A stretch of DNA of 17,104 bases from a virus. Taxonomy: Duplodnaviria > Heunggongvirae > Uroviricota > Caudoviricetes. Within the stretch, counting starts at the first letter, position 1. Every line of letters starts with the position of its first letter. Position numbers and translations under genes: made by a program. This document shows, piece by piece, positions 1-17,104 of the stretch. The DNA is taken from IMG/VR virus record IMGVR_UViG_2740892269_000010; one strand, written 5' to 3'. The notes under the pieces are model-generated. The model saw only the letters and a program-made list of their open reading frames with translations, did not search any database and had not been told where the DNA came from.

Positions 1-53
1 CTGGGGAATATCTCCCCGGCAGCCTTCAGGGAAAAATATCATCAGATGGCTGC

Positions 54-227
54 TTAAAAAAAGAACAAATGGTAGTGTCCGCTATTGCCAGTACACCTCA
101 GGGTATAAGGGGTTATGGCCACCGGACTACCAAACGGCTGCCAGCCCTCTTTCAGTTTATGTGTCAGCTTTTCCGCAAGATCTGACGGCGGCGCCGCCCT
201 GACAACATCATAGTGTTTAAATGCCAT
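54..227 (-). CDS. Hypothetical small prophage protein (about 57 aa from the internal ATG; the ORF extends to 242)
   Basis: Six-frame ORF 54..242 on the minus strand. The internal ATG at 227-225 is preceded by GGAAAG about 5 nt upstream (reverse complement of 233-238), a plausible Shine-Dalgarno. No motif recognised. Lies in the prophage late-transcription direction. Confidence 0.3.
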   Translation of the reverse strand: MAFKHYDVVRAAPPSDLAEKLTHKLKEGWQPFGSPVAITPYTLRCTGNSGHYHLFFF

Positions 228-487
228 GGTTCTTTCCACCATCTGAAAAATAATTCTTTAAAATACCTGACATGTAATACAGAAAAAACACAAAACCATA
301 CCTTAAATAAAAACCTGATTATCAAGCAGATATGCATGGATAAACTACAAGACGAGATATAAACCACCCTGCATTTAAATAAACAATAAACAACATCAGA
401 AAAATAATTCTGCTCTATGGTTTACATTCAAAAATATCATTTATACTTTTCAGAACATCACCAGCAAGGCATAAACAAGGAAACTAA

Positions 488-823
488 ATGAAGTGGATTG
501 TGATTGATACAGTTATCCAGCCATCATGCGGAATATCTTTTTCAGTCATATGGAGTAAAATAAAATTAATAATCTGGTATCAATCGGATGCTTTCTTACC
601 TCCTGAAAGTATATTTACACTGACTCACACAGGCATCATGCTCAATAACAAAGTGCTACCTGTAACCATTTACAACGTAGTACCATTCAATAAAACATTC
701 TGGAATTCAATCAAAAATAGCCAGGAATGCCCTACAAATACAGATAACGTATTGAATGAATGCTTTAATAACCGTTGCACTCTGCAAATATGTCCTTATG
801 GACTAAAACAACAAAGTCCATAA
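488..823 (+). CDS. Candidate AT-rich cargo (moron-like) ORF, 111 aa, unknown function
   Basis: ATG at 488 preceded by AAGGA (476-480) at 7-nt spacing. Upstream sigma70-like hexamers TTTACA (421-426) and TATACT (442-447). A 9-bp perfect hairpin at 858-879 lies 35 nt after the stop. Very AT-rich compared with flanking DNA. No recognisable domain; in an AT-rich region an ORF of this length could arise by chance. Confidence 0.3.
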
Positions 824-857
824 GGAGTTTACTCACATCTGACAAAATCAATATAAA

Positions 858-879
858 CAGCCCCTCCGGAGAGGGGCTG
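858..879 (-). terminator. Strong GC hairpin, probable rho-independent terminator for minus-strand (phage late-direction) transcripts
   Basis: Stem cagcccctc (858-866), loop cgga, stem gaggggctg (871-879). On the minus strand it is followed by a T-rich tract (complement of aaaatcaatataaa at 844-857). No T-tract on the plus side. Confidence 0.45.
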
Positions 880-1270
880 GAGAGTGGCGCTATGTGCCAT
901 TGCATGGTGCCGGGTGCCTCCCGGTGAATTCAGTACCAGCACCTGAATCCGCGATTATCCCATATACCTACTCGCTGATTGCCCCTCCGCACAGGGGGAT
1001 TCACCATGCCAGTTTCTTTTAACAAACTCCCCGCAAACCAGACAACAGTCAACCGCCTGAATTGTGAAGTATTTAAAAATTTCTCCCGCTAACTGATACC
1101 CGGCTAACAGTCTGGCGTTTTCTTTTTCAGCAACGGGAAAGCAACAACCACCACACCCGCCACCAGCACACCGTCAGCCAGCACTGACATTATCCGGCTG
1201 CTGCAATGCCATTCACAAAAACAGTAAGCAATCACTTTTTACCGTAACAGGTGATAATCCAGATATGTAT

Positions 1271-1624
1271 CTACCCCAGATGAGTAATCCGAAGTTCATC
1301 CATACCACAGGTCCTGGCTATTCTGTTGTACTCCTGAACAAGAGCAAATAATTCTGAATTAGCAACCATGAACTCATCGCAAACCCTCTGTATAGCATCA
1401 CTATTCAGAATAATAACGTCTCTTCCCGAAAGACGATCAGGAGTACAGAACAAAACTGTCAAACGGCTGAAGGCCTTTGCTCGTGCTGCATTGACTATAT
1501 CAATACGCTGCCTAAGGATGAAACACCCCGACGCCTCATCAATATTCACTCTACCCACACCATATGAATGATAAATATTTAATGCTGAAAAAACCATTAG
1601 ACCGTATAACAAACACTCAATCAA
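1271..1624 (-). CDS. Hypothetical ORF (117 aa, TTG-initiated in the ORF track) at the cargo position downstream of the tRNA
   Basis: Six-frame ORF only. The start codon at 1624-1622 is TTG; no clear RBS and no recognisable motif. Could equally be a gene remnant. Confidence 0.22.
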   Translation of the reverse strand: MIECLLYGLMVFSALNIYHSYGVGRVNIDEASGCFILRQRIDIVNAARAKAFSRLTVLFCTPDRLSGRDVIILNSDAIQRVCDEFMVANSELFALVQEYNRIARTCGMDELRITHLG

Positions 1625-1734
1625 TACTTAACAGAACTTTTATTTTTGACAAACATAAAATATTTTCAACAATATCCTGAGCCAGGTATATTTCAGTATA
1701 AGGCTCTGCCGGAAGGAATCTGGAAGAATGAATA

Positions 1735-1811
1735 TGGCGCGCTGTACTGGATTCGAACCAGTGACCGATTGCTTAGAAGGCAATTGNNNNNNNNNNNNNN
1801 NNNNNNNNNNN
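1735..1811 (-). tRNA. tRNA-Arg (anticodon UCU), 3' half visible, 5' part masked by N
   Basis: Reverse complement of 1735-1786 reads caattgccttctaagcaatcggtcactggttcgaatccagtacagcgcgcca. This gives an anticodon stem attgc/gcaat with loop cTTCTAa (anticodon TCT), a T-stem actgg/ccagt with loop TTCGAAT, a 7-nt acceptor 3' strand, discriminator G and an encoded CCA. The 5' end at about 1811 is extrapolated from a 77-nt length. Confidence 0.6.
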
Positions 1812-2077
1812 NNNNNNNNNNNNNNNNNNNNNNNNNNNNNNNNNNNNNNNNNNNNNNNNNNNNNNNNNNNNNNNNNNNNNNNNNNNNNNNNNNNNNNNNN
1901 NNNNNNNNNNNNNNNNNNNNNNNNNNNNNNNNNNNNNNNNNNNNNNNNNNNNNNNNNNNNNNNNNNNNNNNNNNNNNNNNNNNNNNNNNNNNNNNNNNNN
2001 NNNNNNNNNNNNNNNNNNNNNNNNNNNNNNNNNNNNNTGTAGAAACTCTTCTAACGTCAGGCATAAAACGCCCATAG

Positions 2078-2932
2078 TTATGACGAATTTACCACAGATT
2101 CCGGAAAAATCAACCTAGTTACCTTTTTTAACTGCCGCTCAGCCCATGCTTCTTCAATATCAAACCGAGTCACCAGCGCATCATAGAATTTCTTAACTGT
2201 TTTTTCCCATGACGCGCGTGTTATCTGGTTTGTCACCTCGCATATAGCATTAAATGCCTCCGTTGATGGTAGTCTTTCATAGCCACGACCACCACAACGC
2301 TGGCAGTCTCTGATAACAGGCATACCACGTTTTACCGACTCTTCACGATGAATGGCGACACCACGCCCACGGCAATCCTTACAGGCGGTGGAAACCTCAC
2401 CCTTTCCGCCACACTCCGGACAGGCAACTTTTACCACCTCCCTGACTTTTTTCCATTCTTCCCAGTAAGACGGATACACACCTTTCGTACACTTTGCCCA
2501 TACCGGCGGCTTACCATCCGGATACTGGACCTTGTTTGTAAAAACTACGCTTTCAATAAATTTTTCCCCATAGCAACAAGGGCACTGCTTTTTACTCGCT
2601 GCGCTGCGGGCATAATCCTCAAAAGCGTACGAAGCCATAATGCGCATCACTACCGGTTTTATTTCTGCCGGAAGTTTTCTCAACGCCGCCACACGATCGC
2701 ACCGACTGAGTGCATAATCTGCCAGTAATTCTGTTGCCCGCGCCCTGTCATTCATACTGATGCCCATTTTCCCCAGGAACGCAGAAAACCCCATCTCAGC
2801 CCGATTCTGTGTCATGCCCTGCGCGGCCATCACATCAGTGATACTCAGCGCATCTTTTGACGTTGAGGCCGATGCATCGGTCAGGCAAGGGGATTTTGGG
2901 GAGTAGTATTTCGGTAAATCTTCCAGTTTCAT
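2078..2932 (-). CDS. Putative lambdoid late-gene antiterminator (Q-like), 284 aa, with DnaJ-type CxxCxGxG zinc-finger repeats
   Basis: Position is diagnostic: immediately downstream of rusA with a 4-nt overlap (2929-2932) and immediately upstream of the tRNA island, as in lambdoid late-regulatory regions. The protein contains CPECGGKG, CKDCRGRG and CQRCGGRG repeats plus CPCCYGEK. The family assignment is from context, not a recognised alignment. Confidence 0.55.
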   Translation of the reverse strand: MKLEDLPKYYSPKSPCLTDASASTSKDALSITDVMAAQGMTQNRAEMGFSAFLGKMGISMNDRARATELLADYALSRCDRVAALRKLPAEIKPVVMRIMASYAFEDYARSAASKKQCPCCYGEKFIESVVFTNKVQYPDGKPPVWAKCTKGVYPSYWEEWKKVREVVKVACPECGGKGEVSTACKDCRGRGVAIHREESVKRGMPVIRDCQRCGGRGYERLPSTEAFNAICEVTNQITRASWEKTVKKFYDALVTRFDIEEAWAERQLKKVTRLIFPESVVNSS

Positions 2933-3303
2933 TTTTTGACCTGCTCTTCATGCATTATGGGGTAAATCTTCACCCCCAGACGTCCACCAGATACTGGCTG
3001 ACCACGAACGATATTGATTTCATCAAACTGCTCATCGTCCATTAACACTCCCGCATGTGTCAGTGCATCCAGTGGTGCTTTCAGGATATTGTCCAGGTCA
3101 CGACGGCGCTTATCCGGTGGCTCTGCAATAATCTTTATCGCCAGTCTTCCGGACAGGCTTAATTTCAGTCGCTGCTGACGGACAATAAGCGCCACATCCC
3201 GGCGATAACGCTCACCGGCTTTTGATACAAAATATGTGTTGTCACGACGTCGCCAGTAAGTATTCACCGTCGGCGGATAAGGTAAAATAAACTCATGGCG
3301 CAT
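2929..3303 (-). CDS. rusA: RusA-family Holliday junction resolvase (crossover junction endodeoxyribonuclease), 124 aa
   Basis: The protein carries DKRRRDLDN followed by LDAL and an acidic DDEQ cluster, matching the conserved RusA core (K-12 RusA has DRRRRDLDN as I recall it). Typical nin-region position upstream of Q. Confidence 0.85.
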   Translation of the reverse strand: MRHEFILPYPPTVNTYWRRRDNTYFVSKAGERYRRDVALIVRQQRLKLSLSGRLAIKIIAEPPDKRRRDLDNILKAPLDALTHAGVLMDDEQFDEINIVRGQPVSGGRLGVKIYPIMHEEQVKK

Positions 3304-3545
3304 CAGCGCAGCACCTCCTGCACCAGTTTTTCAAACTTTCCGACTCTGGTTTCCAGCTCTGCCACACAGTCCACCAGCTCATCTACTGCTTTCTGTGCGC
3401 GATGCTTCGCCTGCATCAGTTCCCGAAGCGCGGGTACCATATCTTTACGGATAGCGTCTTTTGTTATGCCCGTTTTTTCGAGTTGTTCAGCATGACGCAG
3501 CATTTCCTGCGCGTGTTTACGCAATTGTTCAGGGGTAAAAGTCAT
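3303..3545 (-). CDS. Hypothetical prophage nin-region protein (about 80 aa from the ATG at 3545; the ORF track extends to a TTG at 3560)
   Basis: ORF 3303..3560 on the minus strand. Its stop overlaps the rusA start by 1 nt (TGATG), suggesting translational coupling. Predicted helical, charged protein; no motif recognised. Confidence 0.5.
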   Translation of the reverse strand: MTFTPEQLRKHAQEMLRHAEQLEKTGITKDAIRKDMVPALRELMQAKHRAQKAVDELVDCVAELETRVGKFEKLVQEVLR

Positions 3546-3771
3546 TGTCTGGTTGTTCAAAAGAAACGCTCCATCTTACTGCTGTCAGTTCGTTTATTAC
3601 TGTATCTGCGCGGATTGCCGGGCTTCATGGGAGTGGAAAGCACCCGTGCACTTTCCTGGTCCACAGGCAGAAAATGTCCGTAGACTGGCCCCCTGAATCT
3701 CCAGACAACCAGTATCACTTAAATAAGTGATAGTCTTAATACTAGTTTTTAGACTAGTCATTGGAGTACAG

Positions 3772-4137
3772 ATGATTGATGTCTTAGGGCCGGAGAAACG
3801 CAGACGGCGTACCACACAGGAAAAGATCGCAATTGTGTCAACGCCACGATGTTTGACCGTTATTTGCCATTTTCATGCCCGCTAAATACTTTCGTTAGCC
3901 AGCCAGTTATTTCTCTGGCGTAAGCAATACCAGGAAGGAAGTCTTACTGCTGTCGCCGCCGGAGAACAGGTTGTTCCTGCCTCTGAACTTGCTGCCGCCA
4001 TGAAGCAGATTAAAGAACTCCAGCGCCTGCTCGGCAAGAAAACGATGGAAAATGAACTCCTCAAAGAAGCCGTTGAATATGGACGGGCAAAAAAGTGGAT
4101 AGCGCACGCGCCCTTATTGCCCGGGGATGGGGAGTAA
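3772..4137 (+). pseudogene. insC: IS2 insC (orfA) disrupted by a premature stop at 3883-3885 inside a 60-bp non-homologous block
   Basis: Same start context as copy 2 insC. From 3837 the sequence diverges for exactly 60 nt and carries an in-frame TAA. Homology and frame resume at 3897. Confidence 0.8.
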
Positions 4138-5000
4138 GCTTAGTCAGCCGTTGTCTCCGGGTGTCGCGTGCGCAGTTGCACGTCATTCTCAGACGAACCG
4201 ATGACTGGATGGATGGCCGCCGCAGTCGTCACACTGATGATACGGATGTGCTTCTCCGTATACACCATGTTATCGGAGAGCTGCCCACGTATGGTTATCG
4301 TCGGGTATGGGCGCTGCTTCGCAGACAGGCAGAACTTGATGGTATGCCTGCGATCAATGCCAAACGTGTTTACCGGATCATGCGCCAGAATGCGCTGTTG
4401 CTTGAGCGAAAACCTGCTGTACCGCCATCGAAACGGGCACATACAGGCAGAGTGGCCGTGAAAGAAAGCAATCAGCGATGGTGCTCTGACGGGTTCGAGT
4501 TCTGCTGTGATAACGGAGAGAGACTGCGTGTCACGTTCGCGCTGGACTGCTGTGATCGTGAGGCACTGCACTGGGCGGTGACTACCGGCGGCTTCAACAG
4601 TGAAACAGTACAGGACGTCATGCTGGGAGCGGTGGAACGCCGCTTCGGCAACGATCTTCCGTCGTCTCCAGTGGAGTGGCTGACGGATAATGGTTCATGC
4701 TACCGGGCTAATGAAACACGCCAGTTCGCCCGGATGTTGGGACTTGAACCGAAGAACACGGCGGTGCGGAGTCCGGAGAGTAACGGAATAGCAGAGAGCT
4801 TCGTGAAAACGATAAAGCGTGACTACATCAGTATCATGCCCAAACCAGACGGGTTAACGGCAGCAAAGAACCTTGCAGAGGCGTTCGAGCATTATAACGA
4901 ATGGCATCCGCATAGTGCGCTGGGTTATCGCTCGCCACGGGAATATCTGCGGCAGCGGGCTTGTAATGGGTTAAGTGATAACAGATGTCTGGAAATATAG
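4095..5000 (+). CDS. insD: IS2 transposase OrfB (InsD) reading frame, 301 aa, intact
   Basis: Identical 301-aa translation to copy 2. Normally expressed as an OrfAB fusion by -1 frameshift at the A6G motif (4089-4095); that cannot yield a normal fusion here because orfA is disrupted. Confidence 0.85.
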
Positions 5001-5011
5001 GGGCAAATCCA
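4971..5011 (+). repeat. IS2 right terminal inverted repeat (IRR) of copy 1
   Basis: 41-nt terminus ending in ...ggggcaaatcca. A perfect inverted match to 5248-5288. Confidence 0.9.
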
Positions 5012-5247
5012 NNNNNNNNNNNNNNNNNNNNNNNNNNNNNNNNNNNNNNNNNNNNNNNNNNNNNNNNNNNNNNNNNNNNNNNNNNNNNNNNNNNNNNNNN
5101 NNNNNNNNNNNNNNNNNNNNNNNNNNNNNNNNNNNNNNNNNNNNNNNNNNNNNNNNNNNNNNNNNNNNNNNNNNNNNNNNNNNNNNNNNNNNNNNNNNNN
5201 NNNNNNNNNNNNNNNNNNNNNNNNNNNNNNNNNNNNNNNNNNNNNNN

Positions 5248-5288
5248 TGGATTTGCCCCTATATTTCCAGACATCTGTTATCACTTAA
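5248..5288 (+). repeat. Right-end-type (IRR-like) terminus at the left end of IS2 copy 2
   Basis: tggatttgcccctatatttccagacatctgttatcacttaa is the exact reverse complement of the right ends at 4971-5011 and 6537-6577. From 5289 it continues as normal IS2 left-end interior (ataagtgatagtc...). Confidence 0.85.
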
Positions 5289-5337
5289 ATAAGTGATAGT
5301 CTTAATACTAGTTTTTAGACTAGTCATTGGAGTACAG

Positions 5338-5703
5338 ATGATTGATGTCTTAGGGCCGGAGAAACGCAGACGGCGTACCACACAGGAAAAGATCGCAATT
5401 GTTCAGCAGAGCTTTGAACCGGGGATGACGGTCTCCCTCGTTGCCCGGCAACATGGTGTAGCAGCCAGCCAGTTATTTCTCTGGCGTAAGCAATACCAGG
5501 AAGGAAGTCTTACTGCTGTCGCCGCCGGAGAACAGGTTGTTCCTGCCTCTGAACTTGCTGCCGCCATGAAGCAGATTAAAGAACTCCAGCGCCTGCTCGG
5601 CAAGAAAACGATGGAAAATGAACTCCTCAAAGAAGCCGTTGAATATGGACGGGCAAAAAAGTGGATAGCGCACGCGCCCTTATTGCCCGGGGATGGGGAG
5701 TAA
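5338..5703 (+). CDS. insC: IS2 OrfA (InsC), 121 aa, DNA-binding transposition protein
   Basis: ATG at 5338 ([26 protein letters not shown]...); the ORF track extends upstream to 5293. Ends at 5703, overlapping insD. Confidence 0.9.
5655..5661 (+). other. A6G slippery heptamer for programmed -1 frameshifting between insC and insD
   Basis: aaaaaag at the insC/insD overlap; the same motif is at 4089-4095 in copy 1. Frameshift-dependent OrfAB expression is established for IS2 and the IS3 family. Confidence 0.7.
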
Positions 5704-6566
5704 GCTTAGTCAGCCGTTGTCTCCGGGTGTCGCGTGCGCAGTTGCACGTCATTCTCAGACGAACCGATGACTGGATGGATGGCCGCCGCAGTCGTCACAC
5801 TGATGATACGGATGTGCTTCTCCGTATACACCATGTTATCGGAGAGCTGCCCACGTATGGTTATCGTCGGGTATGGGCGCTGCTTCGCAGACAGGCAGAA
5901 CTTGATGGTATGCCTGCGATCAATGCCAAACGTGTTTACCGGATCATGCGCCAGAATGCGCTGTTGCTTGAGCGAAAACCTGCTGTACCGCCATCGAAAC
6001 GGGCACATACAGGCAGAGTGGCCGTGAAAGAAAGCAATCAGCGATGGTGCTCTGACGGGTTCGAGTTCTGCTGTGATAACGGAGAGAGACTGCGTGTCAC
6101 GTTCGCGCTGGACTGCTGTGATCGTGAGGCACTGCACTGGGCGGTGACTACCGGCGGCTTCAACAGTGAAACAGTACAGGACGTCATGCTGGGAGCGGTG
6201 GAACGCCGCTTCGGCAACGATCTTCCGTCGTCTCCAGTGGAGTGGCTGACGGATAATGGTTCATGCTACCGGGCTAATGAAACACGCCAGTTCGCCCGGA
6301 TGTTGGGACTTGAACCGAAGAACACGGCGGTGCGGAGTCCGGAGAGTAACGGAATAGCAGAGAGCTTCGTGAAAACGATAAAGCGTGACTACATCAGTAT
6401 CATGCCCAAACCAGACGGGTTAACGGCAGCAAAGAACCTTGCAGAGGCGTTCGAGCATTATAACGAATGGCATCCGCATAGTGCGCTGGGTTATCGCTCG
6501 CCACGGGAATATCTGCGGCAGCGGGCTTGTAATGGGTTAAGTGATAACAGATGTCTGGAAATATAG
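5661..6566 (+). CDS. insD: IS2 transposase OrfB (InsD), 301 aa
   Basis: ORF 5661..6566, identical translation to the copy 1 frame. Frame is -1 relative to insC. Confidence 0.9.
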
Positions 6567-6577
6567 GGGCAAATCCA

Positions 6578-6733
6578 GGTACTGCCGAAAATATTCAGAT
6601 AGAGCTGAGGGATGACCAGGATGCTGCGTTAAAAAATGGCGATAGCAAAACGGTTATTGTTGATGAGATCACTCGTAATGCACAGTTTCCACTTAAGGCA
6701 AGAGCTATCACGGTGAATGGAAACGCAAGCTAG
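6578..6733 (+). pseudogene. ydeR: 3' remnant (51 codons) of a fimbrial minor subunit gene truncated by IS2; ydeR-like by gene order
   Basis: In-frame translation from the IS2 boundary reads GTAENIQIELRDDQDAALKNGDSKTVIVDEITRNAQFPLKARAITVNGNAS, a pilin-type C-terminus. It sits directly upstream of the FimH-like ydeQ, the position of ydeR in K-12. No start codon or 5' part is present. Confidence 0.5.
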
Positions 6734-6836
6734 GGAACGATCGAGGCGCTAATCAATGTGATCTACACCTGGCAATAACGTCGATTCGATTTTCTTAGCC
6801 TTCTTTTTAAATCAATTTTTAACCTTAGGATATATC

Positions 6837-7751
6837 ATGGGTAAAACAATCAGTATAAAGGTCCTGTTCGGTATTTATCTTCTATTAATGGCAGGCAAAG
6901 TTTTTGCCTTCAGTTGTAATGTCGATGGCGGGTCAAGTATTGGAGCAGGTACAACCTCTGTTTATGTTAATCTCGACCCTGTAATACAGCCGGGCCAGAA
7001 TCTGGTTGTAGACTTGTCTCAGCATATAAGTTGCTGGAATGATTACGGCGGCTGGTACGACACTGATCATATAAACCTGGTACAAGGCTCAGCTTTCGCA
7101 GGCTCCCTACAGTCATATAAAGGATCGCTGTACTGGAATAATGTGACCTACCCCTTCCCGTTGACGACAAATACCAACGTATTGGATATTGGTGATAAGA
7201 CACCGATGCCATTACCGTTAAAACTCTATATTACCCCAGTTGGGGCGGCCGGTGGAGTTGTCATAAAAGCGGGGGAAGTCATTGCCCGTATTCATATGTA
7301 TAAAATTGCAACATTAGGAAGCGGAAATCCGCGTAATTTTACGTGGAATATTATTTCAAATAACAGTGTTGTTATGCCAACAGGCGGCTGCACCGTTGAT
7401 AGTCGTAATGTCACTGTGGATCTCCCGGACTTTCCTGGAAGCGCAGAAATACCCCTTGGCGTATATTGCTCAAGCGAACAAAAGCTCTCATTTTATCTTT
7501 CGGGTGCCACCACTGACAGTAGCCGACAAGTGTTTGCTAACACAGCACCTGATGCAACAAAAGCATCGGGAGTGGGTGTCACTCTAATGCGTAATGGAAA
7601 AATACTGGCTACGGGAGAAAATGTCTCCCTGGGGACAGTAAATAAAAGCAAAGTACCTCTGGGTTTAAGCGCAACCTATGGACAAACAGGAAACAAGGTT
7701 TCAGCCGGAACCGTCCAGTCAGTCATTGGTGTCACTTTTATCTATGAATAA
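6837..7751 (+). CDS. ydeQ: FimH-family fimbrial tip adhesin homologue, 304 aa
   Basis: Signal-peptide-like N-terminus. Strong collinear similarity to FimH ([51 protein letters not shown]). RBS agga at 6827-6830. Confidence 0.85.
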
Positions 7752-7823
7752 TTGTGATTTTGACCTTAGTCTATGCGCTCCATTCACGAAAATTGCGCAG
7801 ATAATTATTTTGTGAAGGCTATT

Positions 7824-7841
7824 ATCCTACACCTGTAAGAA
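7824..7841 (+). promoter_or_regulatory. Candidate EvgA-box inverted repeat upstream of ydeP
   Basis: ATCCTACA-CC-TGTAAGAA: two half-sites in inverted orientation with a 2-bp spacer, and a near-identical copy upstream of safA (10567-10584). ydeP and safA-ydeO are established EvgA targets. Confidence 0.5.
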
Positions 7842-8084
7842 AATCCGCGCACAATTGAAGCCAGAGTCTTATTTTTTATATTGAAAAATATGTTAATTTA
7901 AACACTATGAGAGATGATGCTTAACTTATCGTATTTAATCTATTGTTTAACGATAATAGATTAAAAATAGAAAGAGAGTAGTCCCCTACTCTTATATATC
8001 CATGTTGGCGATAATCCCTTTGTATGTACTGTGCATCATCGCTATTACAAATCCTAATAATTCATTTCCACACAGGATAAGTAG

Positions 8085-10448
8085 ATGAAGAAAAAAATTG
8101 AATCCTACCAGGGTGCTGCAGGTGGTTGGGGTGCTGTTAAATCCGTAGCGAATGCAGTACGTAAGCAGATGGATATACGCCATGATGTTATTGCCATGTT
8201 TGACATGAATAAGCCAGAGGGCTTTGACTGTCCGGGTTGTGCATGGCCAGATCCTAAGCACAGTGCGTCATTCGACATTTGTGAAAACGGCGCAAAAGCA
8301 ATCGCCTGGGAAGTCACGGATAAGCAGGTAAATGCCTCTTTCTTTGCTGAGAATACGGTTCAATCATTACTTACCTGGGGAGATCACGAGCTTGAGGCTG
8401 CGGGGCGTCTCACTCAGCCTTTGAAATATGATGCCGTCAGCGACTGTTACAAGCCATTAAGCTGGCAACAAGCTTTCGACGAAATTGGCGCACGCCTTCA
8501 AAGCTATAGTGATCCCAATCAGGTTGAATTCTATACTTCGGGCCGCACTTCCAATGAAGCTGCCTTTCTTTATCAGCTTTTTGCCCGTGAATACGGGAGC
8601 AATAACTTTCCCGACTGCTCCAACATGTGCCATGAACCGACAAGCGTGGGTTTGGCAGCGAGTATCGGTGTAGGTAAAGGGACCGTGTTGCTGGAAGACT
8701 TTGAGAAGTGCGATTTAGTCATTTGCATTGGGCATAACCCTGGTACAAACCACCCTCGCATGCTGACTTCGTTGCGCGCTTTAGTGAAACGGGGAGCGAA
8801 AATGATCGCCATCAATCCTCTACAGGAACGTGGCCTGGAGCGATTTACCGCACCGCAAAACCCGTTTGAAATGCTGACGAACTCTGAGACTCAGTTGGCC
8901 AGTGCCTACTACAACGTGCGCATTGGTGGCGATATGGCGTTGCTCAAGGGGATGATGCGCCTGTTAATTGAGCGCGATGATGCTGCAAGTGCCGCAGGTC
9001 GGCCCTCATTGCTTGATGACGAATTTATTCAAACGCATACCGTCGGCTTTGACGAGCTACGCCGTGACGTTCTCAATTCCGAGTGGAAAGATATCGAACG
9101 TATTTCTGGACTAAGTCAGACACAAATCGCCGAACTGGCTGACGCATATGCCGCTGCCGATCGCACCATTATCTGTTACGGAATGGGGATCACTCAGCAC
9201 GAACATGGTACCCAGAATGTACAGCAACTGGTCAATCTGCTGTTGATGAAAGGTAACATTGGCAAGCCTGGTGCGGGTATCTGCCCACTACGAGGTCACT
9301 CTAATGTACAGGGCGACCGAACCGTCGGTATCACCGAGAAACCGTCTGCAGAGTTTCTGGCTCGCCTGGGTGAGCGCTATGGCTTCACCCCACCTCATGC
9401 ACCTGGACATGCTGCAATTGCCAGCATGCAAGCAATATGCACGGGGCAGGCTCGAGCATTGATCTGCATGGGGGGCAACTTTGCACTGGCAATGCCAGAT
9501 CGGGAAGCGAGCGCTGTACCGTTAACGCAATTAGATTTGGCGGTACACGTAGCCACTAAGCTTAACCGCTCTCATCTGCTGACCGCACGGCATAGCTATA
9601 TTCTGCCGGTTCTGGGGCGTAGCGAGATTGACATGCAAAAAAGCGGTGCGCAGGCGGTAACCGTTGAGGATTCAATGTNNNNNNNNNNNNNNNNNNNNNN
9701 NNNNNNNNNNNNNNNNNNNNNNNNNNNNNNNNNNNNNNNNNNNNNNNNNNNNNNNNNNNNNNNNNNNNNNNNNNNNNNNNNNNNNNNNNNNNNNNNNNNN
9801 NNNNNNNNNNNNNNNNNNNNNNNNNNNNNNNNNNNNNNNNNNNNNNNNNNNNNNNNNNNNNNNNNNNNNNNNNNNNNNNNNNNNNNNNNNNNNNNNNNNN
9901 NNNNNNNNNNNNNNNNNNNNNNNNNNNNGTTACCAGAGTTCGCCGACTATAACCAGCGCATCCGACATCCTGGAGGTTTTCACCTGATAAATGCAGCTGC
10001 TGAAAGGCGCTGGATGACGCCGTCAGGTAAGGCTAATTTCATTACCAGCAAAGGGCTGTTAGAAGATCCCTCTTCAGCGTTTAACAGTAAGCTGGTCATG
10101 GCGACAGTACGTAGCCACGATCAGTACAACACGACGATTTATGGTATGGATGATCGCTATCGAGGGGTATTCGGTCAACGAGATGTGGTCTTTATGAGTG
10201 CTAAACAAGCTAAAATTTGCCGTGTAAAAAACGGCGAAAGAGTTAATCTTATTGCGCTTACGCCAGACGGTAAGCGCAGCTCACGCCGCATGGATAGATT
10301 AAAAGTGGTCATTTACCCTATGGCTGACCGCTCACTGGTGACCTATTTTCCAGAATCGAATCACATGCTAACTCTTGATAACCACGATCCATTAAGTGGC
10401 ATTCCTGGTTATAAAAGTATTCCGGTTGAATTAGAACCATCAAATTAA
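8085..10448 (+). CDS. ydeP: YdeP, molybdopterin oxidoreductase family (formate dehydrogenase-like) acid-resistance protein
   Basis: 787-codon ORF; the middle is N-masked (9679-9928) but the frame is preserved. N-terminal Cys cluster CPGCAW...C. AGGA RBS 7 nt before the ATG at 8085; the in-frame ATG at 8169 (MDIRH...) would give the 759-aa form I recall for K-12. Confidence 0.9.
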
Positions 10449-10461
10449 TTCGCCTCCTCAT

Positions 10462-10500
10462 TTCTTCTGCTGTCATCCGCACAGCAGAAGAATTTCTCAT
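10462..10500 (+). terminator. Rho-independent terminator after ydeP
   Basis: Perfect 12-bp stem ttcttctgctgt / acagcagaagaa with loop catccgc, followed by tttctcatt. Confidence 0.6.
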
Positions 10501-10566
10501 TGACTATTATCGCGCAATTTGCTCACATTGATTAAATTAAACCACACACTATAAGATATAAACCTC

Positions 10567-10584
10567 TGCCTACAGCTGTAAGAA
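10567..10584 (+). promoter_or_regulatory. Candidate EvgA-box inverted repeat upstream of safA-ydeO
   Basis: TGCCTACA-GC-TGTAAGAA, 112 nt upstream of the safA ATG. Possible -10 TATATT at 10637-10642. Confidence 0.55.
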
Positions 10585-10695
10585 ACTCCGCTCAGTACTG
10601 AAGTGCCAGTCCTATTTCCTCTTTTCTCCAGCCTGTTATATTAAGCATACTGATTAACGATTTTTAACGTTATCCGCTAAATAAACATATTTGAA

Positions 10696-10893
10696 ATGTA
10701 TGCGACCACAGTGAAAAACAAAATCACGCAAAGAGACAACTATAAAGAAATCATGTCTGTAATTGTGGTTGTCTTATTACTGACCCTTACGTTGATAGCC
10801 ATTTTTTCGGCAATTGATCAGCTGGGTATTTCAGAAATGGGTCGCATTGCAAGAGATCTTACACATTTCATTATCAATAGTTTGCAAGACTGA
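10696..10893 (+). CDS. safA: SafA, small membrane protein linking EvgS/EvgA to PhoQ, 65 aa
   Basis: Translation MYATTVKNKITQRDNYKEIMSVIVVVLLLTLTLIAIFSAIDQLGISEMGRIARDLTHFIINSLQD, with a single central hydrophobic helix. Sits directly upstream of ydeO as in K-12. Confidence 0.85.
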   Translation: MYATTVKNKITQRDNYKEIMSVIVVVLLLTLTLIAIFSAIDQLGISEMGRIARDLTHFIINSLQD

Positions 10894-10967
10894 AAATAAA
10901 CAGCAAATTATAAATATGAAATGTTAAAAAAGTATCGATAAAAACTTTATTGTTTTAAGGAGATAAA

Positions 10968-11735
10968 ATGTCGCTCGTTTGTTCTGTTATATTTATTCAT
11001 CATGCCTTCAACGCTAACATTTTAGATAAAGATTACGCCTTCTCTGACGGCGAGATCCTGATGGTAGATAACGCTGTTCGTACGCATTTTGAACCTTATG
11101 AGCGGCATTTTAAAGAGATCGGATTTACTGAAAATACCATTAAAAAATATCTACAATGCACTAACATNNNNNNNNNNNNNNNNNNNNNNNNNNNNNNNNN
11201 NNNNNNNNNNNNNNNNNNNNNNNNNNNNNNNNNNNNNNNNNNNNNNNNNNNNNNNNNNNNNNNNNNNNNNNNNNNNNNNNNNNNNNNNNNNNNNNNNNNN
11301 NNNNNNNNNNNNNNNNNNNNNNNNNNNNNNNNNNNNNNNNNNNNNNNNNNNNNNNNNNNNNNNNNNNNNNNNNNNNNNNNNNNNNNNNNNNNNNNNNNNN
11401 NNNNNNNNNNNNNNNNNNNNCCATGGAAGCTGAAAGATATTTGTGACTGCCTGTACATCAGTGAAAGCCTGTTGAAGAAAAAACTAAAGCAAGAGCAAAC
11501 GACATTCTCACAGATTCTATTAGATGCCAGAATGCAGCACGCAAAAAATTTGATACGCGTAGAAGGTTCAGTCAATAAAATTGCCGAACAATGTGGTTAT
11601 GCCAGTACATCTTATTTTATTTATGCGTTCCGCAAACATTTCGGCAACAGTCCGAAGAGAGTTTCTAAGGAGTACCGTTGTCAAAGTCACATGGGTATGA
11701 ATACGGGCAACACGATGAGTGCTTTAGCTATTTGA
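10968..11735 (+). CDS. ydeO: YdeO, AraC-family acid-resistance transcriptional activator
   Basis: RBS aaggag at 10957-10962. N-terminus MSLVCSVIFIHHAFNANILDKDYAF and a C-terminal AraC HTH (KIAEQCGYASTSYFIYAFRKHFGNSPKRV). The middle is N-masked (11168-11420). Confidence 0.9.
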   Translation: MSLVCSVIFIHHAFNANILDKDYAFSDGEILMVDNAVRTHFEPYERHFKEIGFTENTIKKYLQCTNXXXXXXXXXXXXXXXXXXXXXXXXXXXXXXXXXXXXXXXXXXXXXXXXXXXXXXXXXXXXXXXXXXXXXXXXXXXXXXXXXXXXXPWKLKDICDCLYISESLLKKKLKQEQTTFSQILLDARMQHAKNLIRVEGSVNKIAEQCGYASTSYFIYAFRKHFGNSPKRVSKEYRCQSHMGMNTGNTMSALAI

Positions 11736-11783
11736 TTATTTGCTAACGAGTAGTCAACCACGCACGCTGCGTAAGAATTAAAT

Positions 11784-11815
11784 GGGGCAGCCATTCCCTG
11801 CCCCGCGTTGTTTTT
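11784..11815 (+). terminator. Rho-independent terminator after ydeO
   Basis: Stem ggggcag / ctgcccc with loop ccattcc, followed by gcgttgttttt. Confidence 0.55.
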
Positions 11816-12135
11816 AGGCGATATATTTATTGAAATAAATAAGTGACATCCATCACATATTTATGCACTTGCATAACCTGTTGCAGATTATTTATGATCT
11901 CAATTCGGCATTTTGTCAGTAAAATGCAATAATTTATTAAATATCAATAAATTAGTTGTTTATCGGCGAGAAATTACTTAATAGAACAGAAAGTAATGTC
12001 AACGCTTTATGGACTGTTATTTCCCTTTTTTTAGCTAAATCTGCTATCTCTTTATGTGACTAACTTCACTTACATCCACTTATTTCTCTTCGTAAAATTA
12101 CTTCGGAATTAAGTACAATAAGAAGAGGAACATTT

Positions 12136-13818
12136 ATGAAGTCTGCATTAAAGAAAAGTGTCGTAAGTACCTCGATATCTTTGATACTGGCATCTGGTAT
12201 GGCTGCATTTGCTGCTCATGCGGCAGATGATGTAAAGCTGAAAGCAACCAAAACAAACGTTGCTTTCTCAGATTTTACGCCGACTGAATACAGTACCAAA
12301 GGAAAGCCAAATATTATCGTACTAACCATGGATGATCTTGGTTATGGACAACTTCCTTTTGATAAGGGATCTTTTGACCCAAAAACAATGGAAAATCGTG
12401 AAGTTGTCGATACCTACAAAATAGGGATAGATAAAGCCATTGAAGCTGCACAAAAATCAACGCCGACGCTCCTTTCATTAATGGATGAAGGCGTACGTTT
12501 TACTAACGGCTATGTGGCACACGGTGTTTCCGGCCCCTCCCGTGCCGCAATAATGACCGGTCGAGCTCCCGCCCGCTTTGGTGTCTATTCCAATACCGAT
12601 GCTCAGGATGGTATTCCGCTAACAGAAACTTTCTTGCCTGAATTATTCCAGAATCATGGTTATTACACTGCAGCAGTAGGTAAATGGCACTTGTCAAAAA
12701 TCAGTAATGTGCCGGTACCGGAAGATAAACAAACGCGTGACTATCATGACAACTTCACCACATTTTCTGCGGAAGAATGGCAACCTCAAAACCGTGGCTT
12801 TGATTACTTTATGGGATTCCACGCTGCAGGAACGGCATATTACAACTCCCCTTCACTGTTCAAAAATCGTGAACGTGTCCCCGCAAAAGGTTATATCAGC
12901 GATCAGTTAACCGATGAGGCAATTGGCGTTGTTGATCGTGCCAAAACACTTGACCAGCCTTTTATGCTTTACCTGGCTTATAATGCTCCGCACCTACCAA
13001 ATGATAATCCTGCACCGGATCAATATCAGAAGCAATTTAATACCGGTAGTCAAACAGCAGATAACTACTACGCTTCCGTTTATTCTGTTGATCAGGGTGT
13101 AAAACGCATTCTCGAACAACTGAAGAAAAACGGACAGTATGACAATACAATTATTCTCTTTACCTCCGATAATGGTGCGGTTATCGATGGTCCTCTGCCG
13201 CTGAACGGGGCGCAAAAAGGCTATAAGAGTCAGACCTATCCTGGCGGTACTCACACCCCAATGTTTATGTGGTGGAAAGGAAAACTTCAACCCGGTAATT
13301 ATGACAAGCTGATTTCCGCAATGGATTTCTACCCAACAGCTCTTGATGCAGCCGATATCAGCATTCCAAAAGACCTTAAGCTGGATGGTGTTTCCTTGCT
13401 GCCCTGGTTGCAAGATAAGAAACAAGGCGCGCCACATAAAAATCTGACCTGGATAACCTCTTATTCTCACTGGTTTGATGAGGAAAATATTCCATTCTGG
13501 GATAATTACCACAAATTTGTTCGCCATCAGTCAGACGATTACCCGCATAACCCCAACACTGAGGACTTAAGCCAATTCTCTTATACGGTGAGAAATAACG
13601 ATTATTCGCTTGTCTATACAGTAGAAAACAATCAGTTAGGTCTCTACAAACTGACGGATCTACAGCAAAAAGATAACCTTGCCGCCGCCAATCCGCAGGT
13701 CGTTAAAGAGATGCAAGGCGTGGTAAGAGAGTTTATCGACAGCAGCCAGCCACCGCTTAGCGAGGTAAATCAGGAGAAGTTTAACAATATCAAGAAAGCA
13801 CTAAGCGAAGCGAAATAA
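12136..13818 (+). CDS. ydeN: YdeN, predicted periplasmic Ser-type sulfatase, 560 aa
   Basis: RBS aggaa. Sec-type signal peptide ending AHAADD. Sulfatase signature S-G-P-S-R at 12529-12543 with Ser at the formylglycine position. Confidence 0.85.
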   Translation: MKSALKKSVVSTSISLILASGMAAFAAHAADDVKLKATKTNVAFSDFTPTEYSTKGKPNIIVLTMDDLGYGQLPFDKGSFDPKTMENREVVDTYKIGIDKAIEAAQKSTPTLLSLMDEGVRFTNGYVAHGVSGPSRAAIMTGRAPARFGVYSNTDAQDGIPLTETFLPELFQNHGYYTAAVGKWHLSKISNVPVPEDKQTRDYHDNFTTFSAEEWQPQNRGFDYFMGFHAAGTAYYNSPSLFKNRERVPAKGYISDQLTDEAIGVVDRAKTLDQPFMLYLAYNAPHLPNDNPAPDQYQKQFNTGSQTADNYYASVYSVDQGVKRILEQLKKNGQYDNTIILFTSDNGAVIDGPLPLNGAQKGYKSQTYPGGTHTPMFMWWKGKLQPGNYDKLISAMDFYPTALDAADISIPKDLKLDGVSLLPWLQDKKQGAPHKNLTWITSYSHWFDEENIPFWDNYHKFVRHQSDDYPHNPNTEDLSQFSYTVRNNDYSLVYTVENNQLGLYKLTDLQQKDNLAAANPQVVKEMQGVVREFIDSSQPPLSEVNQEKFNNIKKALSEAK

Positions 13819-13830
13819 CTAAACCTTCAT

Positions 13831-13850
13831 GCGGCGGATTTTTCCGCCGC
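13831..13850 (+). other. Intercistronic hairpin between ydeN and ydeM (possible weak terminator or attenuator)
   Basis: Perfect 7-bp stem gcggcgg / ccgccgc with loop attttt, followed by a poor T-tract (cttattg). Confidence 0.35.
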
Positions 13851-13869
13851 CTTATTGAGCGAGATAGCG

Positions 13870-15027
13870 ATGCACGTTACAGCCAAGCCCTCCAGTTTTC
13901 AATGTAATCTCAAATGTGATTACTGTTTTTACCTTGAAAAAGAGTCGCAGTTTACTCATGAAAAATGGATGGATGACAGCACTCTGAAAGAGTTCATCAA
14001 ACAATATATCGAAGCGTCTGGCAATCAGGTCTATTTTACCTGGCAAGGCGGTGAACCCACTCTGGCTGGCCTGGATTTTTTCCGTAAAGTTATTCACTAT
14101 CAACAACGCTATGCAGGCCAAAAACGTATTTTTAATGCATTACAAACGAATGGCATTTTATTGAATAATGAATGGTGTGCCTTTCTCAAAGAACATGAAT
14201 TTCTGGTTGGTATCTCGATCGATGGCCCCCTGGAGTTACATGACCGTTACAGACGCAGTAATTCAGGTAACGGTACTTTTGCAAAAGTGATAGCAGCCAT
14301 CGAGCGTCTGAAATCATATCAAGTAGAGTTTAATACGTTAACCGTCATTAATAACGTTAATGTCCATTACCCTCTTGAGGTTTATCATTTTTTAAAATCT
14401 ATCGGCAGTAAACATATGCAATTTATCGAATTGCTAGAAACCGGGACGCCGAATATTGATTTCAGTGGTCATAGTGAGAACACATTCCGTATCATTGATT
14501 TTTCTGTGCCTCCCACGGCTTATGGCAAGTTTATGTCAACCATTTTTATGCAATGGGTTAAAAACGATGTGGGTGAAATTTTCATTCGTCAGTTTGAAAG
14601 CTTTGTCAGCCGTTTTTTGGGGAATGGGCATACAAGTTGTATTTTCCAGGAGTCCTGCAAGGATAATCTGGTTGTTGAAAGTAATGGAGACATTTACGAA
14701 TGCGACCATTTTGTCTATCCACAGTACAAAATTGGAAACATTAATAAATCTGAACTCAAAACGATGAACAGTGTACAACTGACAGCGCAAAAAAAACGGA
14801 TTTCAGCGAAATGTCAGCAATGTGCATATAAACCTATCTGCAATGGCGGTTGTCCTAAGCATCGTATTACTAAAGTAAACAATGAGACTGTTTCTTATTT
14901 TTGCGAAGGTTATAAAATCCTTTTTTCAACCATGGTACCTTATATGAACGCCATGGTTGAGTTAGCTAAGAACAGAGTACCGCTTTACCACATTATGGAT
15001 GTTGCAAAACAAATGGAGAATAATTAA
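13870..15027 (+). CDS. ydeM: YdeM, radical-SAM anaerobic sulfatase-maturating enzyme homologue, 385 aa from the ATG at 13870
   Basis: CxxxCxxC radical-SAM motif CNLKCDYC (13903-13926) and C-terminal Cys clusters (CDHF..., [17 protein letters not shown]). The ORF track extends to a TTG at 13855 inside the hairpin; the ATG at 13870 is preferred. Confidence 0.85.
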
Positions 15028-15080
15028 TAACGCTCTCTTTTAACTCCATTCTTAGCCTCCTTCTTATGACCTTAACAAGG

Positions 15081-15110
15081 CACCCGACATAAATTCCTGT
15101 CGGGTGTTTC
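15081..15110 (+). terminator. Candidate terminator after ydeM
   Basis: 9-bp stem cacccgaca / tgtcgggtg with loop taaattcc, followed by only a short T run (tttc). Confidence 0.4.
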
Positions 15111-15323
15111 GTCATCATCATCTTCCCTTGCGAAAATCCTGGCTTACGTGGTATGCGTCAGGGCATTAGCAATACCCTTGATTATCAATAGCATAACCAT
15201 AACCATAACCACTGAAAATTAAAAATTTCTATATATTTCATATTGTTAAATGATACTTAAATAAATTTCATCAGTAAATCATTGCCATAGATAATCATTG
15301 GATGGCACAATCAATTTTCGCTA

Positions 15324-17009
15324 ATGATAACCATTCCCATTACGTTTTATATGTTGATAGCAAAGTATCTCTGTCTGCTGAAGCCCTTTTGGCTGCGTAA
15401 GAATAATAAAACTTCAGTGTTGTTAATCATTATTATCCTCGCAATGATCCTTGGCGTGGTTAAAATTCAGGTCTGGTTAAACGACTGGAATAATGATTTT
15501 TTCAATGCGCTAAGCCAGAAAGAAACCGATAAGCTTTGGCAGCTTGTTCTTTGGTTCCCTGCCCTGCTGGGGATCTTTGTATTAATATCCGTAAACAAAA
15601 CATGGTTAATTAAACTACTGACTATTCGCTGGCGCGAATGGTTAACAGATTACTACCTTAATCGCTGGTTTGCAGATAAAAACTACTACTTCACGCAGAT
15701 CTACGGCGAGCATAAAAATACAGATAACCCTGACCAACGTATCGCTGAAGACATTCTCTTACTGATCAGCAAAACGCTCAGTCTTTCATTTGGCTTCATC
15801 CAGTCACTTAGCATGCTGATCACCTTTACCGTTATTCTTTGGCAAAGCGCGGGTACGCTCTCATTCACTGTTGGTGGAACAGAATGGAATATCCAGGGGT
15901 ATATGGTCTATACCGTCGTGCTCATTGTGATCGGTGGAACTTTATTTACCCATAAGGTGGGTAAACGTATTCGTCCGCTTAATGTGGAAAAACAACGTAG
16001 CGAAGCGACATTTCGAACTAATCTTGTGCAGCATAATAAGCAGACAGAACTGATTGCGCTAAGCAATGCTGAGTCTCTACAACGCCAGGAGTTGCGCGAC
16101 AATTTTCATACCATTAAAGAGAACTGGCATCGTTTAATGAATCGTCAGCGGTGGCTTGATTACTGGCAAAATATTTATTCGCGCTCGCTTAGCGTTCTTC
16201 CCTACTTTCTGTTATTGCCGCAGTTTATTAGCGGGCAGATCAATCTGGGCGGACTGATGAAATCGCGCCAGGCATTTATGCTAGTATCGAACAATTTAAG
16301 CTGGTTTATTTATAAATATGACGAACTTGCTGAACTGGCTGCGGTTATCGATCGCTTGTATGAGTTCCATCAACTCACTGAACAGCGCCCTACGAATAAG
16401 CCTAAAAATTGCCAACATGCGGTACAAGTGGCTAATGCGAGTATTCGTACGCCTGATAATAAGATCATATTAGAGAACTTGAACTTTCATGTTTCGCCAG
16501 GCAAATGGCTATTACTGAAAGGCTACTCTGGTGCGGGAAAAACCACACTGCTTAAAACATTATCCCACTGCTGGCCGTGGTTTAAAGGTGATATTTCTTC
16601 TCCTGCTGACAGTTGGTATGTGTCACAAACACCGTTAATCAAAAGCGGCTTACTGAAAGAGATTATTTGTAAAGCACTTCCCCTGCCCGTAGACGATAAA
16701 TCGTTGAGCGAAGTACTGCATCAGGTTGGTCTGGGGAAATTGGCTGCGCGTATTCATGACCACGATCGCTGGGGAGATATTCTTTCCAGCGGCGAAAAAC
16801 AACGTATCGCCCTGGCACGATTAATTTTACGACGTCCGAAATGGATATTTCTTGACGAAACTACCTCTCATCTTGAGGAACAAGAGGCTATACGCTTACT
16901 GCGTTTAGTGCGTGAAAAACTACCCACAAGCGGCGTCATTATGGTTACACATCAACCCGGTGTCTGGAACCTGGCTGATGATATTTGTGACATTAGCACG
17001 GTTTTATAA
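15324..17009 (+). CDS. yddA: YddA, fused permease/ATPase ABC transporter, 561 aa
   Basis: N-terminal hydrophobic segments. Walker A GYSGAGKTTLLK, ABC signature LSSGEKQRIALARL and Walker B WIFLDETTSHL. Length and position match K-12 yddA. Confidence 0.85.
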   Translation: MITIPITFYMLIAKYLCLLKPFWLRKNNKTSVLLIIIILAMILGVVKIQVWLNDWNNDFFNALSQKETDKLWQLVLWFPALLGIFVLISVNKTWLIKLLTIRWREWLTDYYLNRWFADKNYYFTQIYGEHKNTDNPDQRIAEDILLLISKTLSLSFGFIQSLSMLITFTVILWQSAGTLSFTVGGTEWNIQGYMVYTVVLIVIGGTLFTHKVGKRIRPLNVEKQRSEATFRTNLVQHNKQTELIALSNAESLQRQELRDNFHTIKENWHRLMNRQRWLDYWQNIYSRSLSVLPYFLLLPQFISGQINLGGLMKSRQAFMLVSNNLSWFIYKYDELAELAAVIDRLYEFHQLTEQRPTNKPKNCQHAVQVANASIRTPDNKIILENLNFHVSPGKWLLLKGYSGAGKTTLLKTLSHCWPWFKGDISSPADSWYVSQTPLIKSGLLKEIICKALPLPVDDKSLSEVLHQVGLGKLAARIHDHDRWGDILSSGEKQRIALARLILRRPKWIFLDETTSHLEEQEAIRLLRLVREKLPTSGVIMVTHQPGVWNLADDICDISTVL

Positions 17010-17040
17010 CAACAATAAAAGCCCTGCTGTACGGAGTAAT

Positions 17041-17074
17041 GCCAGTCAGTTAAGCAACTGACTGGCTCTTTTTC
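17041..17074 (+). terminator. Rho-independent terminator after yddA
   Basis: Stem gccagtcag / ctgactggc with loop ttaagcaa, followed by tctttttc. Confidence 0.7.
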
Positions 17075-17104
17075 GGGGCTGTGGGGTATTTCCAGGGCCT
17101 CTCC

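Follow-up and report, generated by a model that had tools for sequence, protein, structure and literature searches.

How does one of two nearly identical IS2 copies come to hold, within orfA, sixty bases of unrelated sequence in exactly the place of sixty of its own? The window, by which we mean the whole 17,104-nt stretch of DNA that was analysed (IMG/VR record IMGVR_UViG_2740892269_000010), contains IS2 copies at 3681-5011 and 5248-6577, spaced 1566 nt apart. The initial annotation described a non-homologous block of exactly equal length at 3837-3896 in copy 1, and our comparison agrees. The counterpart of the block is the canonical orfA stretch of copy 2 (5403-5462, plus strand), with which it agrees at 15 of 60 positions and mismatches at 45; the earlier reading of chance-level identity is retained, while the figure of about 28% is corrected to 25%. 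When the copies were compared at the offset of 1566, the block was the sole difference across 3713-5011, as the initial annotation had it for the entire element outside the block. That description does not extend to the first 32 nt, where the copies differ at 13 positions because the left end of copy 2 carries right-end sequence, as described below. Simple derivations of the block from the canonical 60 nt were ruled out: its reverse, complement and reverse complement gave 11-13 matches of 60, and a shuffle would have kept a base composition that in fact differs. Elsewhere in the window no possible source shared a k-mer of 11 nt or longer with the block.

The remainder of copy 1 is ordinary IS2, labelled by PGAP on near-identical copies as "IS3-like element IS2 family transposase". 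A 5-bp target duplication, GTCCG, lies on its left at 3676-3680 (the flank reads ...aaaatGTCCG and then tagactgg) and is followed on the plus strand by IS2 nt 1-155 (3681-3835), which comprise the canonical left inverted repeat and, from its ATG at 3772, the beginning of orfA, are continuous with the prophage flank and are 100% identical to three complete genomes (L020-L022 among the loci fetched for comparison). IS2 nt 217-1331 (3897-5011, plus strand) carry the remaining orfA, orfB and the right inverted repeat, and are 100% identical both to L020-L022 and to copy 2. The right-hand GTCCG position falls under a run of N in the window; in the complete genome L021, GTCCGttataaaa stands directly after the IS2 right end, so that the left copy of the duplication is read in the window and the right copy in L021. 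The IS2 at the prophage site is a simple insertion with a GTCCG duplication. With its imperfect terminal repeats, the left from 3681 and the right to 5011, its orfB and a total length of exactly 1,331 bp, copy 1 is like canonical IS2 of the IS3 family, and it differs in the 60 foreign bases held by orfA.

What do these bases do to the coding capacity of copy 1? The ORF list gives a truncated orfA (insC) at 3772-3885 on the plus strand, with 37 codons and a TAA, matching the early observation that an in-frame TAA at 3883-3885 ends OrfA after 37 codons, of which the final 15 are read, like the stop, from the foreign block. The orfB of copy 1 (4095-5000, 301 codons) is intact, as are both orfA and orfB of copy 2. 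Production of the OrfAB transposase by frameshifting requires both genes to be intact, and orfA of copy 1 ends at codon 37. As written, copy 1 is predicted to be incapable of making either OrfA or the OrfAB transposase.

To identify the donor, which the initial annotation had left as unknown, the 60-mer was searched against 5,426 complete E. coli genomes. A match at 100% was found in 1,733 records, the majority of them plasmids, where it lies under remnants annotated as "AAA family ATPase" or IS21. In the matching records the block is preceded by a T and followed by a reverse-strand istB stop codon, and it sits between an istB remnant and unrelated DNA. The match to the donor extends to T3836 and A3897, which makes the foreign piece 61-62 nt long and places its true left edge at T3836. 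In each of four unrelated contexts (L001, L004, L007 and L011) the neighbouring DNA departs exactly at TGTCAACGCC, which identifies TGTCAACGCC as the terminus of the element. An intact IS21-family copy (L007) is 2,130 bp long, with inverted ends TGTCAACGCCA and TGGCGCTGACA and a TATA target duplication, and its genes are named by PGAP "IS21-like element IS21 family transposase" and "helper ATPase IstB". The block end starts with TGT, as does the opposite end of the element, and the block together with T3836 equals, at 100%, nt 1-61 of this element with terminal inverted repeats. On this identity we assign 3836-3896 (minus strand) to the outermost 61 nt at the right end of an IS21-family element, in the non-coding terminal inverted-repeat region immediately beyond the istB stop; the element is leftward, and istB and istA would be on the minus strand.

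The two genes that define IS21, istA and istB, are both absent from the window, so the window holds a fragment and not a member element of the family. At the same spot, relatives encode a 390-aa product with rve and Mu-transpos_C_2 domains and a 265-aa product with an IstB_IS21 domain. Compared with the IS21-like element itself, with its istA transposase and istB AAA+ helper, the window shares right-end nt 1-61; it differs in being limited to 61-62 of the 2,130 bp and in lacking istA, istB, a second end and a target duplication. A target duplication of the nested IS21 is not visible because the distal junction is deleted in all relatives. As a single end without istA and istB, the 61-nt tip is presumably inert. 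Among the 5,426 E. coli genomes, the PLSDB plasmids and the phage records, we found no IS2 that carries the block, which speaks against a common IS2 allele. Both IS2 and IS21 are among the 12 IS types listed for S. sonnei 53G, and a very high IS load has been described for Shigella (Hawkey et al., PMC7373316).

The position of the IS21 tip proved to be occupied in other genomes by much more of the same element. At least five public assemblies and two IMG/VR contigs share with the window the prophage flank, the IS2 and the left junction at which IS21 enters IS2 (3835/3836; GCAATTG followed by TGTCAACGCC; L002, L003, L004, L005/L027, L020, L021 and L022). In the two IMG/VR contigs the exact sequence is GATCGCAATTG followed by TGTCAACGCC..., with the prophage flank in place. 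The carriers include the drafts ADUU01000128.1 and AKNE01000030.1, in both of which the identical 37-aa OrfA product is a called gene, and the complete chromosomes CP037997.1, CP022459.1 and CP041322.1, which were found through the neighbouring 80-aa prophage protein. Judging from sister plasmid records named S. sonnei, the carrier genomes are probably S. sonnei. Common to at least seven public sequences, the left junction is a genuine insertion junction.

The order of the locus is the same in all relatives: Q, RusA, the 80-aa gene, IS2 nt 1-155 and the IS21-like element. Those relatives that reach the far end show 2,065 bp of IS21 (istB of 265 aa and istA of 390 aa) and then IS2 nt 203-1331. 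The natural distal junction reads ...ccttaaggaaaCAACATGgtgtagc, and the 7-nt CAACATG is present in both IS21 and IS2, the mark of a microhomology deletion, through which IS21 lost its last 65 nt and IS2 lost 46 nt. The stretches concerned are 7085-7140 of L004 and 2440-2475 of L007. Since the left terminal repeat of the nested IS21 was lost in this deletion, the nested IS21 would itself be immobile, and copy 1 in these real genomes is likewise predicted to be dead. From these comparisons the real locus is a nested, dead IS2::IS21. The window shares with it the prophage flank, the IS2, the insertion point and the 37-aa OrfA, and the common parts are 100% identical: segments 1-1786, 2038-3897 and 3897-5011 each match L020-L022 perfectly. 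The difference is that L020-L022 have 2,017 more bases between the second and third of these segments, and that IS2 resumes there at nt 203 through the 7-nt microhomology, whereas in the window it resumes at nt 217, in register.

Draft contigs of the locus typically break off tens to hundreds of bases into IS21, after 73 nt in L003, about 150 nt in L002 and about 320 nt in AKNE01000030.1. L002 (IMGVR_UViG_2671180603_000013) is itself a stitched scaffold at about 2230-2290: after some 150 nt of IS21 it crosses a single N and continues in another, diverged copy of the Q-gene region.

These findings bear directly on two of the origins first proposed for the block. An edit to the file that had nothing to do with the locus, for instance the exchange of a 60-column FASTA line or the planting of an arbitrary block, would account for exactly 60 differing bases, a common FASTA line width, and would not be out of keeping with N masks that fail to preserve length in the same window. 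The true foreign piece, however, is 61-62 nt, the block is the exact continuation of the left junction in real genomes, and an arbitrary line would not start at a transposon terminus lying at a natural insertion site. We regard such an edit as very unlikely, and the suggestion of an engineered change, in the sense of an arbitrary planted block, is rejected on the same grounds. Gene conversion or recombination, pasting 60 bp from a donor locus into the orfA of IS2, would provide a replacement of equal length from a donor present in the same gene pool. Yet homology between donor and recipient extends no further than 1 nt to either side of the block, whose left edge falls on a transposon terminus, and relatives carry the full IS21 element at the very same spot; an intact IS2 acting as donor would moreover erase the whole insert and not spare 61 nt of it. 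Gene conversion, also raised in the initial annotation, is for these reasons extremely improbable.

The right-hand edge of the block is of a different kind. At 3896/3897 the window joins CTTTCGTT to AGCCAGCC, that is, IS21 nt 61/62 to IS2 nt 217 in register, and this junction is seen in the window only. The spanning sequence as written is CTTTCGTTAGCCAGCC, where IS21 would continue into istB with ACTGATGCTGTCC.... The window is without 2,017 nt (L004 5119-7135), made up of IS21 nt 62-2065 and IS2 nt 203-216, and 61 nt of IS21 fill exactly the place of 61 nt of IS2. The right junction was absent from the 5,426 E. coli genomes, the PLSDB plasmids and the phage records, and it was not found in IMG/VR, in the JGI metagenomes or in any locus fetched. 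Likewise, its 221-nt context was nowhere intact in the complete E. coli genomes, PLSDB or the phage records. As a second approach, exact-protein look-ups were performed for a 60-aa antisense ORF across 3896/3897 and for a 52-aa GTG form of OrfA, neither of which gave a match, while a 45-aa downstream ORF was too common to be informative. Shigella chromosomes were reached by these look-ups only, so that a strain with a real right junction could be missed. In the GTDB species genomes, neither the left junction nor the prophage/IS2 junction had a match. A false join would be one that neither reads nor independent sequences support, and no independent sequence in the collections compared carries the right junction.

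Could the junction nevertheless record a real event? IS-rich Shigella genomes have many real IS-adjacent deletions. A genuine 2,017-bp deletion in the source strain, removing IS21 nt 62-2065 and IS2 nt 203-216, would leave a 61-nt footprint and restore 1,331 bp by coincidence. The left junction and both flanks are authentic, the lineage already shows one real deletion at the other edge of IS21, and IS-linked variation is known in IS-dense Shigella genomes (PMC7373316). Against such a deletion stands first its exact register, which we estimate would arise about once in 1,000 if a deletion ran at random from IS21 into the 3' part of IS2. The junction has 1 nt of microhomology, compared with 7 nt at the natural distal junction, it is missing from every collection searched, and all seven other copies of the locus have kept IS21. 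A second in-register chimera and a jump between loci are moreover found in the same window. We consider a genuine deletion unlikely, although less so than an edit to the file or gene conversion.

The second chimera is at the left end of IS2 copy 2. The first 41 nt of this copy (5248-5288, plus strand) are the exact reverse complement of its right end (6537-6577), a perfect inverse in the place where canonical IS2 has the sequence seen at 3681-3721. Copy 2 returns to IS2 left-interior sequence within the shared TATCACTTAA, again in register. Canonical IS2 has asymmetric ends, with a left repeat unlike the right repeat, and copy 2 departs from this by bearing right-end sequence at its left end, an arrangement unseen in public IS2. 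The chimeric left end was absent from the 5,426 E. coli genomes, IMG/VR, the metagenomes and the gene-position index, and a 40-aa ORF across 5279-5288 had no match in the exact-protein look-up. In CP023645.1 (L008) the same ydeR::IS2 copy has the canonical left repeat and is otherwise identical to the window over 5289-9678.

The jump between loci lies between the two IS2 copies, where a run of 236 N (5012-5247) extends from the last base of copy 1 to the first base of copy 2. Complete genomes have GTCCGTTATAAAA and an IS600-like element after the right end of the prophage IS2, rather than a further IS2. Window 1-5011 and window 5248-17104 correspond to loci about 363 kb apart in CP037997.1 (at about 2.66 and about 3.03 Mb), in the same orientation: the former is a lambdoid prophage with Q and RusA, and the latter is ydeR-ydeQ-ydeP-safA-ydeO-ydeN-ydeM-yddA. 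By this mapping the change of locus would fall somewhere inside the N run at 5012-5247.

This run is one of four of 236-253 nt (1787-2037, 5012-5247, 9679-9928 and 11168-11420). Sized against genomes of 100% identity, the runs of 251, 250 and 253 N stand for 263, 166 and 247 nt, respectively; the N runs therefore do not keep length. That they hide special sequence was ruled out for the three that are recoverable, which cover ordinary tRNA, ydeP and ydeO sequence. The first of these runs cuts into the prophage genes for tRNA-Arg(tct) and tRNA-Met (window 1737-1786, minus strand; L004 2944-3196), breaking off the first tRNA gene after about 50 nt. Taken as a whole, the window is best described as a mosaic of authentic segments, whose joins find support in no other sequence to which it was compared.

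The neighbourhood of copy 2 shows IS21 ends of its own. Copy 2 interrupts the fimbrial gene ydeR (window 6578-6733), and a 60-aa fusion ORF over the IS2 end and ydeR was found in 2,444 blocks of the assembly collection, from which we take the ydeR insertion to be widespread and old in the lineage. In most of the complete genomes fetched (L009-L017, at about 9697-9760), the ydeR IS2 is down to its last 276 nt, and this remnant abuts another IS21 right end (...GGCGTTGACA and then CTTGAACC). In CP023645.1 (L008 8660-8700) a full IS2 abuts an IS21 right end that is cut 17 nt past the istB stop. Together with the prophage case, IS21 right ends thus lie beside IS2 pieces at two separate loci in the lineage.

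We hypothesize that the block stems from a real, already known insertion of one IS into another, and that a non-biological, in-register join removed the inner part, and on the sequence comparisons reported here we hold this to be the probable explanation by a good measure. An IS2 copy adjoining the Q and RusA genes of a lambdoid prophage in Shigella sonnei-type chromosomes received an IS21-like element after nt 155, and a later deletion at CAACATG produced IS2[1-155]-IS21[1-2065]-IS2[203-1331], in which OrfA ends at codon 37 on a TAA within the IS21 tip. The window follows this real locus perfectly up to IS21 nt 61/62 and then proceeds with generic IS2 from nt 217. Probably an alignment superimposed a sequence that ended a few tens of bases into the repeated IS21 on an IS2 copy, or fused the two, and this may have occurred in assembly, scaffolding, gap filling or preparation of the window. 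Exact register favours such alignment-based merging because merging yields register automatically, and merging is plausible because draft contigs of the locus do end inside IS21. That the right junction is an artefact, and the process behind it, we infer from these features.

Other routes to such a join were considered. A single k-mer overhang is opposed by the different overhangs at the two anomalies, 61-62 nt at one and 31-41 nt at the other. A chimera of the de Bruijn graph is unlikely, as the sequences at the two false joins share only 1 nt and 10 nt. An intact IS2 at the prophage site could have been the reference for guided assembly, but in GPEC1405, which came closest among E. coli, IS2 occupies a different site, inside Q. 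The favoured in-register merging has the features of false joins at collapsed or nested repeats, namely a multi-copy repeat, perfect register, gaps, a second in-register chimera in the window and a join without support from any other sequence, a likeness drawn from sequence comparison. Of the origins listed in the initial annotation, it is the data artefact that the evidence favours, for the equal length of the block; the donor, far from unknown, is an IS21-family element that contributes its outermost 61 nt here and stands at greater length in the same position in public genomes.

Equal length is the sole unusual aspect of this locus, and it is most likely artefactual. The finding matters mainly as quality control: at least two joins in the window are unsupported elsewhere and its N runs are not true to length, and caution is needed with any result from the window that depends on spacing or on the arrangement of two IS2 copies. 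It would be a mistake to interpret the equal-length "replacement" as gene conversion, as engineering or as a new IS2 allele.

It is quite improbable, in our judgement, that the sequence is real as written, that is, an IS2 derivative of full-length size with both IS2 ends and a 61-bp IS21 terminal repeat in orfA, lying beside an IS2 with two right ends. If it were, the embedded 61-bp repeat would be an IstA-binding end left behind by a precise-looking loss of 2,017 bp, and the non-autonomous IS2 could move in trans, taking a single IS21 end to new sites, while the two right ends of its neighbour would make that copy interesting with respect to the asymmetry of IS2 transposition. Mobilisation of copy 1 in trans by copy 2, as first proposed, matters only if the written sequence exists in a cell, which is doubtful. 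What the locus otherwise reflects is a routine event, one IS inserted into another in an IS-saturated Shigella-type genome, and public assemblies already contain it.
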